Source of the DNA: Burkholderiales bacterium
GTDB taxonomy: Bacteria; Pseudomonadota; Gammaproteobacteria; Burkholderiales; SG8-41
Length of the DNA stretch: 64,000 bases
Direction: 5' to 3'
Assembly: GCA_030683105.1 (NCBI GenBank)
Contig: JAUXMZ010000037.1
Location: forward strand, 767-64,766
Shown here: piece after piece, positions 20,908 through 57,179 of the stretch
Layout: each line of letters starts with the position of its first letter
Numbering within the stretch: position 1 is the first letter of the stretch
Made by a program: the position numbers and the translations under genes
The notes under the pieces: generated by a model
Database searches by the model: none
The model's input: the letters and a program-made list of their open reading frames with translations, nothing else
What the model was told of the DNA's origin: nothing

Positions 20908-21771
20908 CTAAACGATCGCAGTCTCGCGAGTCAGTAGTCTCCTCTCGTAGTTAACGGATAACAAGTAGCCCAGGGAAGAATGCCGACGATGTGGGTTGTA
21001 CCAGCCCTCGAGCCACTCGAACACCGCCATGCGGGCTTCGGTCTGCGTCTTGAACCGGCGCCGGTTCAGCAGTTCACGTTCCAGGGTAGCGAAGAAGCTC
21101 TCGGCCATGGCGTTATCGTACGCATCGCCGACCGATCCCATGGACGGCATGACGCCCATTTCACGGCACCGTTTGCCAAATGCGTAGCTGGTGTATTGGC
21201 AGCCCCGTTCGGAGTGGTGGATCACCCCCTGTGGCCGACGTTGCATCAGGGCCATGTTCAGCGCGCTCATCACCAGTTCGGTGCGCAGATGCGTTTCCAT
21301 CGCCCAGCCCACAATGCGGCGCGACCAGACATCCAGCACCACCGCCAGATACAGAAAGCCGTACCATGTCGGAATGTAGGTGATGTCGGCGACCCACAGA
21401 CAATCCGGCCCCGCGGCCGCAAACTGCCGCTCGACCAAGTCCACCGCGCGCCCCGTCGTCGGATCCACTATCGTGGTGCGCACAAAGCACTGAGGAGTGA
21501 CGCCGCACAAGTCAGCGGCCTGCATCAATCGCGCCACGCGCTTATGGCCAACGTGAATGCCGTGATCGTCGGCCAGTTCGGCATGAATCGAAGGTGCCCC
21601 GTACGCGCCTCGGGAGCGGCGATGAATACCGTGGATCAGTGCAGTCAGCGCAATATCCGCTCGCGCACGTGCTGACAGCGGCCGATATTCCCACGCGTAG
21701 AACCCGCTCTTGGAGACTTTGAGCAACCGGCACATGAGCGCCACCGGATTTCGGGCCTGGTTTGCCTTCAC
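20908..21771 (-). CDS. IS3-family OrfB (DDE integrase core)
   Basis: 287 aa. ...NPVALMCRLLKVSKSGFYAW...WVADITYIPT...HHSERGCQYTS...DNAMAESFF...YNPHRRHSSLGY.... Confidence 0.9.
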   Translation of the reverse strand: MKANQARNPVALMCRLLKVSKSGFYAWEYRPLSARARADIALTALIHGIHRRSRGAYGAPSIHAELADDHGIHVGHKRVARLMQAADLCGVTPQCFVRTTIVDPTTGRAVDLVERQFAAAGPDCLWVADITYIPTWYGFLYLAVVLDVWSRRIVGWAMETHLRTELVMSALNMALMQRRPQGVIHHSERGCQYTSYAFGKRCREMGVMPSMGSVGDAYDNAMAESFFATLERELLNRRRFKTQTEARMAVFEWLEGWYNPHRRHSSLGYLLSVNYERRLLTRETAIV

Positions 21772-22084
21772 GAATCCGAAGAGCGCTTCGGTGTCGCGGT
21801 GCTCTCTTTCGCAAAAACCGGGCCGCGGCTTTTGACAGGATCTCCCGCTCCAGCTTGAGCTGCCGGTTCTCGCGCCGCAGCCGGCTTAACTCCTGCCGAT
21901 CTTCGCTCGTCAGGCCGCCGTCTCCTCGACCCGCGTCCCGCTCGGCCTGTTTGACCCACTGCCGGATCGACCACCCCGTGCAGCCAAACTCCTGCTCCAG
22001 ATCGGCGAATTTACGCCCGGCCCGGACCAGCTCGACCATCTGGCGCCGGAACTCCGGCGGGTACTTCCGTTGCTTGTTTGCCAT
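21542..22084 (-). CDS. IS3-family OrfA (HTH/leucine zipper); only the first ~90 codons are OrfA-like
   Basis: ATG at 22084 gives MANKQRKYPPEFRRQMVELVRAGRKFADLEQEFG...LRRENRQLKLEREILSKAAA. After the T5 run (A5 on the plus strand, 21813-21817) the frame reads through non-homologous sequence. Confidence 0.75.
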   Translation of the reverse strand: MANKQRKYPPEFRRQMVELVRAGRKFADLEQEFGCTGWSIRQWVKQAERDAGRGDGGLTSEDRQELSRLRRENRQLKLEREILSKAAARFLRKRAPRHRSALRIREGKPGPKSGGAHVPVAQSLQERVLRVGISAAVSTCASGYCADCTDPRYSSPLPRRVRGTFDSCRTGRRSRHSRWP

Positions 22085-22138
22085 TTCGAACACCTCTCTT
22101 TGTGACAATGGAGTGTCCACTGAAACGGGTCAAGTCCA

Positions 22139-23064
22139 ATACGAAGATGCTGCTTTATCCATTTGAAAAACAACTCGACCTGCCACCGGTATCGATAGAG
22201 ATCGGCGATAGTGATCGCCGGCAGCGCGAAGTTGTTGGTCAGGAACACCCGCCGTTTGCCGGTCTTGGGGTCTTTGAACTTGATGCGGCGCAGTGGCCTA
22301 TTGAAGTCTTGGCGCGAGTAGAAACCGGCGAGCGCGATGGTTCGATCGCAAATCAAGCCAGTGCTTCGATCGACCGGATGGGAATAACGCCGATGGGCTT
22401 TGAGGTTGGATTTGGCGCGCGTCACAAAGATGCTGTCTGCTTCGTGCAGGCGATGGAGCCGTTCGAAATCGAGATAGCCTCGGTCCATGATGTAGAAGGC
22501 ACCCGGTTCTGGCAGCAACAGGTCCAGAGCATCGACGTCGTGAAGCTTGCCGTCGCTGATGTGCAGAAACGTGGGGATGTTGCCGCGCAGATCCAAGAGC
22601 GTGTGCAGCTTGATGGCTGCTTTGGTCGAGCGAAACGGTGCCCAAGGAAACACCGACATGCACAAATCGATGGTGCTGGCATCGAGCGCGTAGACCGTCT
22701 CCTTCTGATCGACGCCAAAGGGTTCCGCAGCATAAAGGGGGCGGGCTATTCCAATGAGCGATTGTGCAAACTCGGCATAGATGTGCCAGTCGCGCACTTC
22801 GTTGGCATCAGCCAACGTGCTGCGCGATACCCGGGTCTTGATCCCCATGTGGTACAGCTTGCTCGCTTGGGCTCGCAGACACGCTTCGATGTCGCGCAAG
22901 CTCTCGCGATAGGTCAGTTGGGCAAAGGCCATGCAAAGATATTGATCGAGGCAGGAAAAGCTCTTGACCTTGTGCTCGCCGCCATAGCGCGCCACGCAAC
23001 GGCGAAACGTCGTCAGCGGCAAATGCTGCGTGACTTGCGCGAACACCAATTTGCCCAAGTGCAT
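22139..23064 (-). pseudogene. IS4-family transposase, N-terminal fragment (DUF4372 + DDE)
   Basis: MHLGKLVFAQVTQHLPLTTFRRCVARYGGEHKVKSFSCLDQYLCMAFAQLTYRESLRDIE...YRYRWQVELFFKWIKQHLRI, then the IS3 end. Confidence 0.85.
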
Positions 23065-41717: not shown

Positions 41718-42929
41718 CTATCTGCCCAGGAGATAGCGGCGCAGGAGGTCCAGCCGTGCGGCTTGCTCGGGATTTTGGCGGGCTTTTTGGCCGGCCTCCT
41801 TAATAAATGCCCATATGACGGCCAGGAAGCCTGCCACAAGGGCGGTCAGTATCACGATAAGCGCGCGTTTGGGACTGGACCTGCGATCAGGTTCGATGGC
41901 CTTATCCATGACCTGGATGATGGAGGAATCCTTGGCTTCGTCGATCTTGGCAAGCCCATACTGCTGCGCGAGCAGTTCGTAGACCGTTTCGTTGTACTTC
42001 AGATCGCGCAACAGACCCAGGTTGTCGATGCCTTCGCTATTGGTTTTCTGAGCATCTTCAGGTTTGCCAGCGGCACCCTCTATTTTCGCAAGCTGGCGTT
42101 TCATCGCTTCCAGCTCCTGCTGTGCCATCAACAGGTCAGGGTTGCGCTCGGCGGCAAAGGTTCGCATGGCGCCGATCTGCACTTCCTTGACGGTGATCTG
42201 TGCCCGCAATCGGGCGCTGCTTTCCGCCATGCTGCGGCCCTGGCCTTCGACCTGGACGAGGCCGCCTTTTTCCAGCGCCTGCCGGGCAGTCGCTTCGGAT
42301 TTGGTGAGATTGACCTTGGCCTGCTCCAACTGGCGTTCGAAAAACAGGCGACGCTGGGCGGCTTCGGTCACTGCCAGCACATTGGTCAGTTTATCGAGCT
42401 CCTCCACATAGGCATTGGCGAGGGTGGCCGCGCGCTTTGGATCCTTGTCGTCCACGGCGATGGAAATTATGCCGTCCTTGCCGGAGGTGATCGTCGACAC
42501 GTTCTCCAGTTGTTTACGGGTGTGGGATTGGTATTCCTTCCCGTAAAGCTTGTTCAGATCGAAGCGCTGGATCAGGTTGTCCGCCACAGTACGGCTCTTG
42601 AGCATAGCGACGTACATGTCGTTGGGGTTCTTGATGCCAGCCACTCCGCCAGCCAACCCGGCAACGGCGCCGAGCTGGTTCAGCATGGCGGAAGCGGTCG
42701 ACTGGCTTTGCTGCGGCGGCAGGATCTTCGTCGTCGCCGTGAAGATAGGGGTCATCAGCAAGCTGACGATCACGGCGAGAACCGCGGCCAGGAAGGGAAG
42801 GCCGAGGATTAGCTTCTTATGCTTCGCCAGGACGATGGCGAGATCAATAAGATTGATCTCGTCATCGTCTGGTGGCTCAACACTTGTGATTGGTGATTGG
42901 TGATTGGTGATTAGTGATTCTTCGCTCAT
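41718..42929 (-). CDS. Wzz/chain-length-determinant family protein (no kinase domain)
   Basis: 403 aa. It has an N-terminal TM (LILGLPFLAAVLAVIVSLLM), a long coiled-coil periplasmic part and a C-terminal TM (ALIVILTALVAGFLAVIWAFI). Residues 5-16 ([12 protein letters not shown]) are encoded by heptamer units. Confidence 0.75.
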   Translation of the reverse strand: MSEESLITNHQSPITSVEPPDDDEINLIDLAIVLAKHKKLILGLPFLAAVLAVIVSLLMTPIFTATTKILPPQQSQSTASAMLNQLGAVAGLAGGVAGIKNPNDMYVAMLKSRTVADNLIQRFDLNKLYGKEYQSHTRKQLENVSTITSGKDGIISIAVDDKDPKRAATLANAYVEELDKLTNVLAVTEAAQRRLFFERQLEQAKVNLTKSEATARQALEKGGLVQVEGQGRSMAESSARLRAQITVKEVQIGAMRTFAAERNPDLLMAQQELEAMKRQLAKIEGAAGKPEDAQKTNSEGIDNLGLLRDLKYNETVYELLAQQYGLAKIDEAKDSSIIQVMDKAIEPDRRSSPKRALIVILTALVAGFLAVIWAFIKEAGQKARQNPEQAARLDLLRRYLLGR

Positions 42930-43051
42930 GATTGGTGATTAGCGTTAAAAACAGTGATTGGCGAACGGCGGTGATTGGTAACTAGAACCAGTGATTAGTA
43001 ATTAGTAATTGGTGTTAAGGGCAGTGATTAGTAACTGGTAATTAGTGATTA
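42883..43051. repeat. Repeat island spanning the wzz-like start codon
   Basis: TTGTGAT TGGTGAT x3 TAGTGAT lies at 42884-42918, inside the CDS. Heptamers and K-box variants then run up to 43051. Confidence 0.9.
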
Positions 43052-43736
43052 GCAAGGCTTGGTGTTGGTTAGCGCGGCTGAGCACCCTATCGTCGTCAGC
43101 GCCAGGCTCCATTTCGGCAACGTAATCCACCTCGTGGCCGTCTTCCCGGAGCCGCAGCACAATCGGCCTGTCAACGCCTTCGTGAAGAGTCCCTAACATA
43201 GTGAAACACGTGTGCGTTGCGAGTCAAAATTGGTGATGACGCGAAGGATGGCGCAGAGCATATCGCGAATATGGTCAAGCCGGCCGACAAAGTGTCCCGT
43301 GCAGGGCGGAGCAGGTTCCAAGTGTTCTATGCTTGGATGCGACCCCGGAGCGGGACGAAAGCGCGCCATCATGTACGGGCCTAATGCACGCCTGCGCGGT
43401 CGCATCCCCGCAAGCGGGGCCCCTGCTCCACGCTTCGGCGCGCCGCCGATTTTGATCGCAACCCTTCGGGCTGACACGAGTTTTGGCCTGTCGCCCCCGG
43501 CTCTCGGCGAGCGCAGCTTTGGGGCGGAGACGGGGGCCGGGGGGTGCCGCAACTCCCGCAACCGGGGCTTGGGCGCCGTTCCCGCAAACGGGCCTGCGGC
43601 AAACGAGTCACGGCGCCCCCTTGTCGCTCCCCTTGCCCATATTCGCGATATGGCCTGCGGAAAGCTTCGCGTCCTGAGCCAAAATCGTGCCAGCGCATCT
43701 CGCGTTTCACTATGTTAGGGACTCAAAGAGCTTCAC
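43002..43736 (-). pseudogene. DUF5615 (PIN-like) toxin gene, interrupted by a MITE and 3'-truncated by heptamer repeats
   Basis: The GTG at 43736 overlaps the DUF433 stop. Deleting 43187-43724 plus one AA restores GTG AAG CTC TTT CAC GAA GGC... = MKLFHEGVDRPIVLRLREDGHEVDYVAEMEPGADDDRVL.... After ~50 codons the frame runs into repeats (...ALLITNYQLLITALNTNY*). Confidence 0.7.
43187..43724. mobile_element. MITE-like non-autonomous element (538 bp) with 21-bp perfect terminal inverted repeats
   Basis: GAGTCCCTAACATAGTGAAAC lies at 43187-43207 and its reverse complement at 43704-43724. The imperfect IR extends to ~95 bp and includes CATATCGCGAATATGG in both arms. The element is flanked by AA/AA and has three CCCGCAANCGGG hairpins inside. 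Confidence 0.8.
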
Positions 43737-44043: not shown

Positions 44044-44087
44044 GTGTCAAAAAACAGTGATTAGTGATTAGTGATTGGTGATTAGTA
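44044..44087. repeat. Heptamer tract with K-box variant
   Basis: GTGTCAAAAAACAGTGATTAGTGATTAGTGATTGGTGATTAG. Confidence 0.9.
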
Positions 44088-56837: not shown

Positions 56838-57179
56838 CTAGGGCCTGTTAACAATTACCGCGTGAGATGCGTTGTGGCCAAAATTGTCGATGGCAAGACG
56901 CTAGTCGCAGCCAATATCGCGAATATTGGCAAGACGAGCAACGAAGCAAGCGGCGATTTTGGCCACAACCCGGAGGGACGGGACGCTGAGCAACGGCTTT
57001 GCCGTTGCGCGTCCCATAATGGGCCAGAATACGGACCGCGAGCGCGTAGCGCCCGCTCGGGGCCCATGGCGTTGTCGCACCTTCGCTTATTTGCCATGGG
57101 GCAAACCGCGCTCGGCGCTCCTAGCCCTGAGCCCAAATCGCCTCCGTCGCACTCATGTGGTAATTGTTAACAGGCCCTA
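56838..57179. mobile_element. MITE-like element related to the one at 43187..43724, 47 bp upstream of the export-protein start
   Basis: The 22-bp perfect inverted termini are CTAGGGCCTGTTAACAATTACC (56837-56858) and GGTAATTGTTAACAGGCCCTAG (57159-57180). If TA is a target duplication within CTAG, the element proper is 56840-57177. Its interior is homologous to the first MITE (GCGTTG..CAAAATTG...ATATCGCGAATAT...CGATTT(T/G)GGCTCAGG). Confidence 0.75.

Follow-up and report, generated by a model that had tools for sequence, protein, structure and literature searches.

Insertion sequences of the IS5 family duplicate 2-4 bp of target DNA, typically a 3-bp TNA in members of the IS1031 type, and the MITEs (miniature inverted-repeat transposable elements) that derive from this family in bacteria have eukaryotic counterparts in the Tourist/mPing-type MITEs of the PIF/Harbinger superfamily, which is related to the IS5 family. 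Correia elements of Neisseria, ERIC/IRU and RUP are hairpin-forming bacterial MITEs of 100-160 bp that duplicate TA or have other targets. The use of a three-nucleotide insertion site is a feature of the IS1031 group of IS5 elements (PMC2516522). The present analysis concerns a stretch of 64,000 nucleotides from a Burkholderiales bacterium (GenBank assembly GCA_030683105.1, contig JAUXMZ010000037.1, positions 767 to 64,766 of the forward strand; referred to as the window), in which a 538-bp element at positions 43187-43724 lies within a gene for a putative DUF5615 toxin, next to an intact DUF433 gene. This element is a true MITE and very probably an old, decayed copy from a family confined to a lineage of uncultured Burkholderiales or Betaproteobacteria. 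The family is a new member of an element class that is already known.

An earlier note on this DNA, made from the sequence without database searches, described the element as a 538-bp MITE with perfect ends of 21 bp. That description is upheld, in that the element is present in multiple copies, has terminal inverted repeats of the length and position proposed and target-site duplications, lacks a transposase, and has empty counterpart sites in relatives. A BLAST search of the element against its own genome (4.12 Mb in 78 contigs) returned 75 matches, and the family occurs in 23 of 41 related genomes, so the repeat is not a product of chance. The search of the genome for further copies that the note had suggested yielded at least eight longer copies and several miniature forms. 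Five copies represent a core form of 265-266 bp (C13:30714-30978, C76:41560-41825, C64:26633-26898, C50:69257-69521 and C40:69869-70134). A 414-bp form (C30:205-618) consists of the core plus an additional segment designated module A, a 392-bp form (C56:32176-32567) consists of the core plus a different segment designated module B, and the window copy carries both modules. The five miniature forms, which are 46-50 bp long (G000 C8:10991-11039, C15:11878-11927, C11:103423-103468, C50:63787-63832 and C68:22583-22628), are made up of the two 21-bp ends and a loop of about 8 nt, and most have TTA or TAA at both sides. The 50-bp miniature form has 13 occurrences in public genomes (e.g., L194, L236 and L248), which likewise mostly have TTA or TAA on both sides. 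The site of the 46-bp form at C68:22583-22628 in G000 is occupied in the sister species G002 by a copy of 222 bp (L126), which indicates that at least some of the miniature forms arise by deletion in place.

A scan of public sequences that included one genome per species identified 87 loci with forms of 50-678 bp. Nearly all of these loci are in records titled as metagenome-assembled genomes (MAGs) of uncultured Betaproteobacteria or Burkholderiales, and the habitats of the public MAGs that carry the family are soil, groundwater, peat and lakes. The plasmid collection contained no match to the element. Several records among loci L171, L173, L177, L180, L188, L193, L212, L239, L247 and L248 are titled "uncultured Streptomycetaceae" or "Streptomyces sp." and carry the MITE. 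The Streptomyces-type titles of these MAG records are probably wrong, as the MITE is otherwise found almost only in betaproteobacterial MAGs.

Target-site duplications were scored on copies with both ends present. A perfect 3-bp duplication flanks 24 of the 39 copies from the element's own genome and its relatives, as well as 31 of the 57 copies from the public loci. All 55 perfect duplications among these 96 copies are TTA or TAA, and when a duplication is imperfect the mismatch is nearly always at the outermost base. The orthologous C56 insertion is flanked by ATA/TTA in G000 and by TCA/TTT in G002, and this difference in decay implies that duplications erode after insertion. The sequence around the window copy reads ...CGTGAA before the element and AAAGAGCTTCAC... 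after it (AAAGAG...), from which the earlier note had deduced a 2-bp AA/AA duplication. This deduction did not survive, since the family duplicates 3 bp and not one of the 55 perfect cases is 2 bp.

Evidence of mobility came from the joined flanks of 14 copies from the element's own genome, which were searched for in the six other species of the genus, and several of these joined sites are uninterrupted in sister species. The C56 copy is common to G002, and its site is empty in G001, G003, G004 and G005, with a clean single TTA in G001 and G005 (...CACAGC TTA TTGCTCGG...) and more diverged sequence in G003 and G004. Sister species likewise have no insertion at the sites of the C76 and C11 copies, and the C40, C50 and C68 sites appear empty, with flanks that are too diverged for a clean alignment. 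Empty sites in relatives, for which the earlier note had proposed to look, are thus present for other copies of the family but not for the window locus, where none occurs among 159 genomes of the bacterial family. The window copy has 93-95% identity with the nearest copies and is taken to be old because it is 5-7% diverged from these relatives.

The features of the element and of the surrounding locus are listed in Table 1. The terminal arms reach 24 nt at 96% complementarity, every copy of the family has the same ends, and at end position 14 of the window copy an A-to-G change in the left end is matched by a T-to-C change in the right end. A second, imperfect inverted repeat of 53 nt (79%) connects positions 43238-43290 with 43621-43673, and when the element is compared with itself by BLAST, positions 1-93 pair with 446-538 at 78%. 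For the inverted repeat that the earlier note had extending about 95 bp inward, two arms, each folded on itself, are the better description. Previous descriptions of a GC-rich, non-coding interior that has three hairpins of the CCCGCAANCGGG type (43406-43419, 43554-43567 and 43580-43592), two copies of CATATCGCGAATATGG and no transposase are correct as well, and one of the two CATATCGCGAATATGG copies is inverted. The G+C content of the element is 63.8%, compared with 60.1% for the genome and 53.6% for the window, and that of the core is 54%, with the two modules being richer. Modules A and B are located at mirror-image positions in the two arms, where they adjoin GACAAAG and its partner CTTTGTC, and the only sequence they have in common is a CCCGCAANCGGGG hairpin. 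Module A is also found standalone elsewhere in the genome. The CCCGCAANCGGG motif occurs 37 times in the genome versus about 6.5 times expected; its carriers are the two modules, A and B, both of which are found outside the MITE as well. None of the three internal open reading frames (ORFs), which are 109-168 aa long, matches a Pfam family, and these ORFs cannot be conserved since most family members lack the two modules that they cross.

Table 1. Positions in the window of the MITE copy and its parts, the DUF433-DUF5615 locus and a copy of the sister MITE family
Feature	Position	Strand	Basis or remark
Whole MITE copy, 538 bp	43187..43724	+	Plus strand is the "forward" orientation of the family (alignment A2); kin copies of 265-538 bp in own genome and relatives
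Left terminal inverted repeat, GAGTCCCTAACATAGTGAAAC	43187..43207	+	Repeat search; 21/21 nt perfect
Right terminal inverted repeat, GTTTCACTATGTTAGGGACTC	43704..43724	+	Repeat search; exact reverse complement of the left repeat
Left arm of family core (element 1-107), with CATATCGCGAATATGG at 43259-43274	43187..43293	+	Alignment of eight own-genome copies; BLAST blocks
Module A (element 108-257), nested 150-bp dispersed repeat, 69% G+C, own inverted ends	43294..43443	+	Not in core copies; also in C30 copy; alone at C72, C60, C73, C13 and C1
Centre of family core (element 258-302)	43444..43488	+	Alignment of own-genome copies
Module B (element 303-434), nested 132-bp insert, 77% G+C, two CCCGCAANCGGG hairpins	43489..43620	+	Also in C56 copy and G002:C154; adjoins TTGTCGC, partner of GACAAAG
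Right arm of family core (element 435-538), with inverted CATATCGCGAATATGG at 43637-43652	43621..43724	+	BLAST blocks; alignment of copies
Left flank, GAA	43184..43186	.	Degenerate version of the expected 3-bp TWA target duplication
Right flank, AAA	43725..43727	.	Degenerate version of the expected 3-bp TWA target duplication
DUF433 gene, intact, putative antitoxin, 78 aa	43733..43969	-	Pfam PF04255, E = 2e-23
DUF5615 5' stub, GTG AAG CTC TTT	43725..43736	-	GTG overlaps the DUF433 stop as GTGA
Remaining body of DUF5615, HEGVDRPIV...QALLIT, about residues 5-52 of about 117 aa	43041..43186	-	PF18480 matched at profile positions 4-54 of 110 (Pfam, E = 1e-9); nucleotide alignment
Heptamer-repeat tract, AGTGATT type	42990..43052	.	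Tandem Repeats Finder; stands where DUF5615 would have its 3' 55-60% (alignment to intact homologues)
Sister-family MITE copy, 335 bp	56842-57176		Ends GGCCTGTTAACAATTACC..., CTAG on both sides

As the earlier note had recognized, the element splits the DUF5615 gene, which it does 12 nt after the GTG that overlaps the DUF433 stop, and this GTGA overlap is the normal DUF433/DUF5615 junction, with the same overlap present in the closest intact pairs. Homologues of the DUF433 protein are 78 aa long and share up to 90% identity with it, with the closest ones being in metagenome contigs. Three metagenome contigs (L043, L044 and L045) possess an intact DUF5615 gene encoding 116-117 aa directly downstream of DUF433 with the GTGA overlap, and one of the three has a 23S-rRNA-IVP-type gene upstream, as does the window. 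An exact 20-mer scan of metagenome contigs retrieved one true homologue, which is an intact pair (L261), and two chance matches. When the pair in the window is examined for completeness, DUF433 is complete and DUF5615 is both incomplete and split by the MITE. Homology to the intact genes ends after ...QALLIT at about residue 52, from which point an AGTGATT-type heptamer repeat takes over, and in a BLASTP alignment the remnant of DUF5615 shares 79% identity over 53 residues with the intact protein from L043 and nothing beyond. Residues ~53 to 117 of DUF5615 are gone, a loss that is independent of the MITE. Judged from its sequence, the locus is a dead toxin gene beside an intact antitoxin-like gene. 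Two lesions, the MITE and the heptamer truncation, inactivate the gene, and the MITE is not a reversible switch.

Dozens of heptamer tracts (GTGATTG/GTGATTA, TCGTTGT and CACGAAC) are distributed from about position 1100 to 54000 of the window (e.g., 42886-42942, 42990-43052 and 44056-44086), where they separate small toxin-antitoxin genes and four-helix-bundle genes. Similar heptamers follow the intact DUF5615 homologue in L044. One end of the MITE provides an outward-facing ATG (ATGTTAGGGACTC) that is in frame with the toxin remnant and gives a 65-aa ORF (MLGTLHEGVD...; 43002-43199, minus strand). This ORF is probably meaningless, and a ribosome-binding site is not evident.

The two ends of the element match within each copy and differ between copies, with pairs that include GAGTCCC/GGGACTC, GAGCCCG/CGGGCTC, GAGCGCC/GGCGCTC, GAGTGCC/GGCACTC, GAGTGCA/TGCACTC, GAGTACC/GGTACTC and GAGCGTC/GACGCTC. 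The ends co-vary at positions 4-7, 14 and 20; positions 4-7 differ between subfamilies and are always matched, even in the 50-bp miniature forms, and the CATAGTG that is unique to the window copy is paired by CACTATG in the opposite end. Folding, which the earlier note had proposed as a check for a structured RNA, was run on an alignment (A2) of 26 core copies from seven genomes, consisting of C13, C40, C50, C56, C64 and C76 from the element's own genome and loci L129-L167. RNAalifold predicted a Y-shaped fold of 96 pairs in which a terminal stem (columns 1-29/241-270) carries two self-folding arms (columns 30-129 and 139-240). Both sides have changed with pairing kept in 28 of the 96 predicted pairs, some of which join one end to the other, and at many pairs three or four pair types occur. 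Shuffled controls had 14.9 +/- 1.9 compensated pairs (0 of 500 reached 28), sliding the partners by 1-3 columns left 4-7, and the covariation score was 0.183 versus 0.078. Around ATATCGCGAATAT, each arm forms a local hairpin with compensatory changes in its stem as well. A core folded as a single long hairpin, with the left half paired with the right half, was rejected for the Y-shape. That model had only 7 compensated pairs, 6 of which were in the terminal stem, and a forced arm-to-arm register had 1 compensated pair among 45 internal pairs, and the variable positions therefore co-vary within each arm.

Cells of the G-U type outnumber those of the A-C type by 158 to 14 in this alignment, and the predicted fold of the forward strand is more favorable than that of the complement, both for the consensus (-116.7 versus -102.9 kcal/mol) and for 21 of the 26 copies individually (Wilcoxon p = 0.003). 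In the window copy each module interrupts one arm, and the fold predicted for this copy is a long arm-to-arm hairpin with z = -7.5 on one strand and -10.3 on the other, which is the kind of fold that any long inverted repeat would be predicted to give. Rfam 15 has no match in the element and only two chance-level miRNA matches outside it (E = 0.36 or higher). Promoter and terminator signals in the copies are not above chance, and orientation relative to flanking genes is unbiased, with 12 sense and 11 antisense copies downstream of genes and 16 and 17, respectively, upstream.

A full-length element with the same ends that encodes a transposase, which the earlier note had proposed to seek, was not found in the genomes and public loci searched. 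In the element's own genome, a fuzzy search for the ends combined with inspection of the ORFs beside every single end yielded housekeeping genes only. Searches with PF01609, PF13359 and the protein of one IS427-type transposase over 25 to 159 related genomes identified no locus with these ends, and the 87 public loci included no autonomous element with these ends, the longest form being 678 bp. An apparent parent at L075 was rejected because the end matches by chance at 16 of 21 positions and the IS4-like gene next to it is unrelated. The element's own genome has neither an IS427-type nor a Harbinger-type transposase, and its single match to PF01609 is an IS4-like gene (MHLGKLVFAQ...; window 21910-23064) that is interrupted by an IS3-type element with two overlapping transposase frames (20908-22120). 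Because no autonomous element was found, assignment to the IS5 family rests on the duplication, the GAG ends and a sister MITE family.

This sister family, which is present in the same genome as about 20 copies or fragments, several of them at contig ends, has ends GGGCCTGTTAACAAT with flanking CTAG and shares a subterminal backbone with the family described here (GCGTTG...CAAAATTG...CATATCGCGAATATGG). Related genomes contain insertion sequences of the IS427 type (IS5 family) that are about 820 bp long and have ends matching those of the sister family (e.g., L070:1100-1919). Their transposase is encoded in two overlapping frames that meet at an A9 slippery run. Insertion sequences of this type in the same bacterial family carry the ends of the sister MITE and not those of this family. 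The sister MITE and its insertion sequence are alike in the terminal ~16 bp only, indicating that the internal backbone common to the two MITE families did not arise from an insertion sequence by deletion. The TTA/TAA duplication fits the 3-bp pattern of the IS1031 type, and from the TWA duplication, the GAG ends and the sister family we infer a DDE enzyme from the IS427/IS1031 groups of the IS5 family as the transposase, for which the expected domain type is PF01609 or PF13586. The copies in this genome are probably stranded and immobile, with the transposase gene not in the assembly.

The central claim of the earlier note was that a MITE with a 2-bp AA duplication resides in a working DUF5615 toxin gene and that its precise excision restores the toxin, which would make the element a reversible switch. 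The arithmetic behind this claim is correct, as removal of the element and one AA leaves GTG AAG CTC TTT CAC GAA GGC GTT GAC, an open frame (MKLFHEGVDRPIV...) that follows a normal GTGA junction with DUF433 and whose product is indeed similar to DUF5615, matching PF18480 over positions 4-54 of 110. The argument fails on the duplication, however, given that 0 of the 55 perfect family duplications are 2 bp and that the frame stays broken if the element is removed along with 3 bp. The four nearest intact homologues (116-119 aa) all begin GTG AAG CTC GTN GCC GAC GAA GG (VKLVADEGVD), whereas the window reads GTG AAG CTC TTT [MITE] TTC AC GAA GG... The spacing from CTC to GAAGG is 9 nt in the intact genes and 8, 6 or 5 nt in the window with none, 2 or 3 nt removed, and hence every reconstruction needs an extra deletion plus substitutions. 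The 2-bp reconstruction is one residue short and has a His where all four homologues have the conserved Asp of an N-terminal ADE motif. The gene would be truncated in any case, the copy is old, and the assembly contains no candidate transposase for excision. Taken together, these observations make restoration by precise excision untenable and a reversible switch very improbable, and they illustrate that an argument from a frame restored by excision misleads when the length of the duplication is assumed and not measured. Scarcely credible is the proposal that the element is a REP/REPIN mobilized by an enzyme of the RAYT (Y1/HUH) kind, or that it is Correia-like and derived from IS630. The family does resemble such elements in being a small, hairpin-rich, multi-copy and mostly intergenic repeat, but REPINs, which are built of short REP hairpins in inverted pairs, make no target duplication and this family has a 3-bp TTA/TAA duplication with 21-bp inverted repeats that start with GAG, Correia elements and IS630 derivatives duplicate TA, and the sister family has an IS427-type DDE parent.

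Alternatively, the core could be under selection because a single strand, either a transcript or single-stranded DNA in transposition, folds as a terminal stem with two long hairpins, in which case the element might be recognized or moved as a folded single strand or might function as a structured RNA, and would not be just two passive sites for transposase binding. The 28 compensated pairs, the covariation within arms, the matching of end positions 4-7 down to the miniature forms, the excess of G-U over A-C cells and the better folding of the forward strand are all consistent with this possibility, which nevertheless seems unlikely. Imperfect inverted repeats become more perfect when templates are switched at quasipalindromes (PMC7202029), a neutral process that could give the same compensatory pattern. 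Furthermore, the copies show no orientation bias relative to genes, no Rfam match, and promoter and terminator signals at chance; the G-U excess is partly built into the structure prediction; and the copies are related, so the counts do not represent independent events. Some observations also weigh against the favored interpretation of the element as an old MITE of the IS5 type. The flanks of the window copy, GAA/AAA, depart from the canonical TWA duplication. A non-exhaustive search of genomes and public loci yielded no autonomous element with these ends, and the assembly, being in 78 contigs, could lack a repeated insertion sequence. Lastly, strong compensatory variation between the ends and within the arms is not expected of plain decaying junk.

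For an old MITE of the IS5 type, the following history is very probable. The family unit is the 265-bp core with terminal inverted repeats of 21-24 bp that start with GAG, and this core inserts at TTA or TAA and duplicates those 3 bp. Since the family encodes nothing, its transposase has to be supplied in trans. Modules A and B are later, nested GC-rich repeat modules, one in each arm of the window copy. The window copy inserted in a DUF433-DUF5615 pair, 12 nt from the start of the DUF5615 toxin gene, and heptamer repeats have taken out the 3' half of that gene as a separate lesion.

The locus itself is of little consequence, being a selfish repeat inside an already dead toxin gene. The family, which is characterized by ends of the form GAG-NNNN-TAACATAATGAAAC, the 265-bp core and the TTA/TAA duplication, provides along with its sister family good annotation markers for MAGs of uncultured Burkholderiales, where these elements break assemblies and create spurious ORFs. 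If the fold is held by selection, the family would represent a DDE-type MITE with a 3-bp duplication whose two ends must base-pair together, which is outside the standard picture of IS5-type transposition. The compensatory variation in the ends and arms constitutes a clean natural data set with which selection for a folded intermediate could be told apart from the neutral perfecting of palindromes through template switching.

Compared with DUF433-DUF5615 modules, which are putative type II toxin-antitoxin systems with a PIN-like toxin, the window locus is alike in its intact DUF433 gene, its GTGA overlap and a remnant of 48 residues that is 79% identical to an intact toxin, and differs in that the toxin gene is interrupted at codon 4-5, is cut off after about residue 52 and has lost the Asp of the ADE motif. 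With Correia, ERIC/IRU and RUP the family shares an intergenic location, palindromic structure, multiple copies, long hairpins and size variants that result from internal deletion or insertion. Unlike these elements, it has a 3-bp TTA/TAA duplication, a 265-bp core, a predicted three-way fold and nested modules, and neither an orientation bias nor a regulatory signal was found in its copies. The closest likeness is to the IS5-derived bacterial MITEs (IS427/IS1031), which are also small, non-coding and multi-copy, with ends that start with G(A/G)G, a 3-bp T-W-A duplication and presence/absence polymorphism between related genomes, and insertion sequences of the IS427 type, about 820 bp long, have the ends of the sister family that is present in the same genomes. 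The family described here differs from those MITEs in that no autonomous partner was found in its own genome, at the transposase loci of related genomes or among the 87 public loci, and in having a predicted fold that is kept by compensatory changes.

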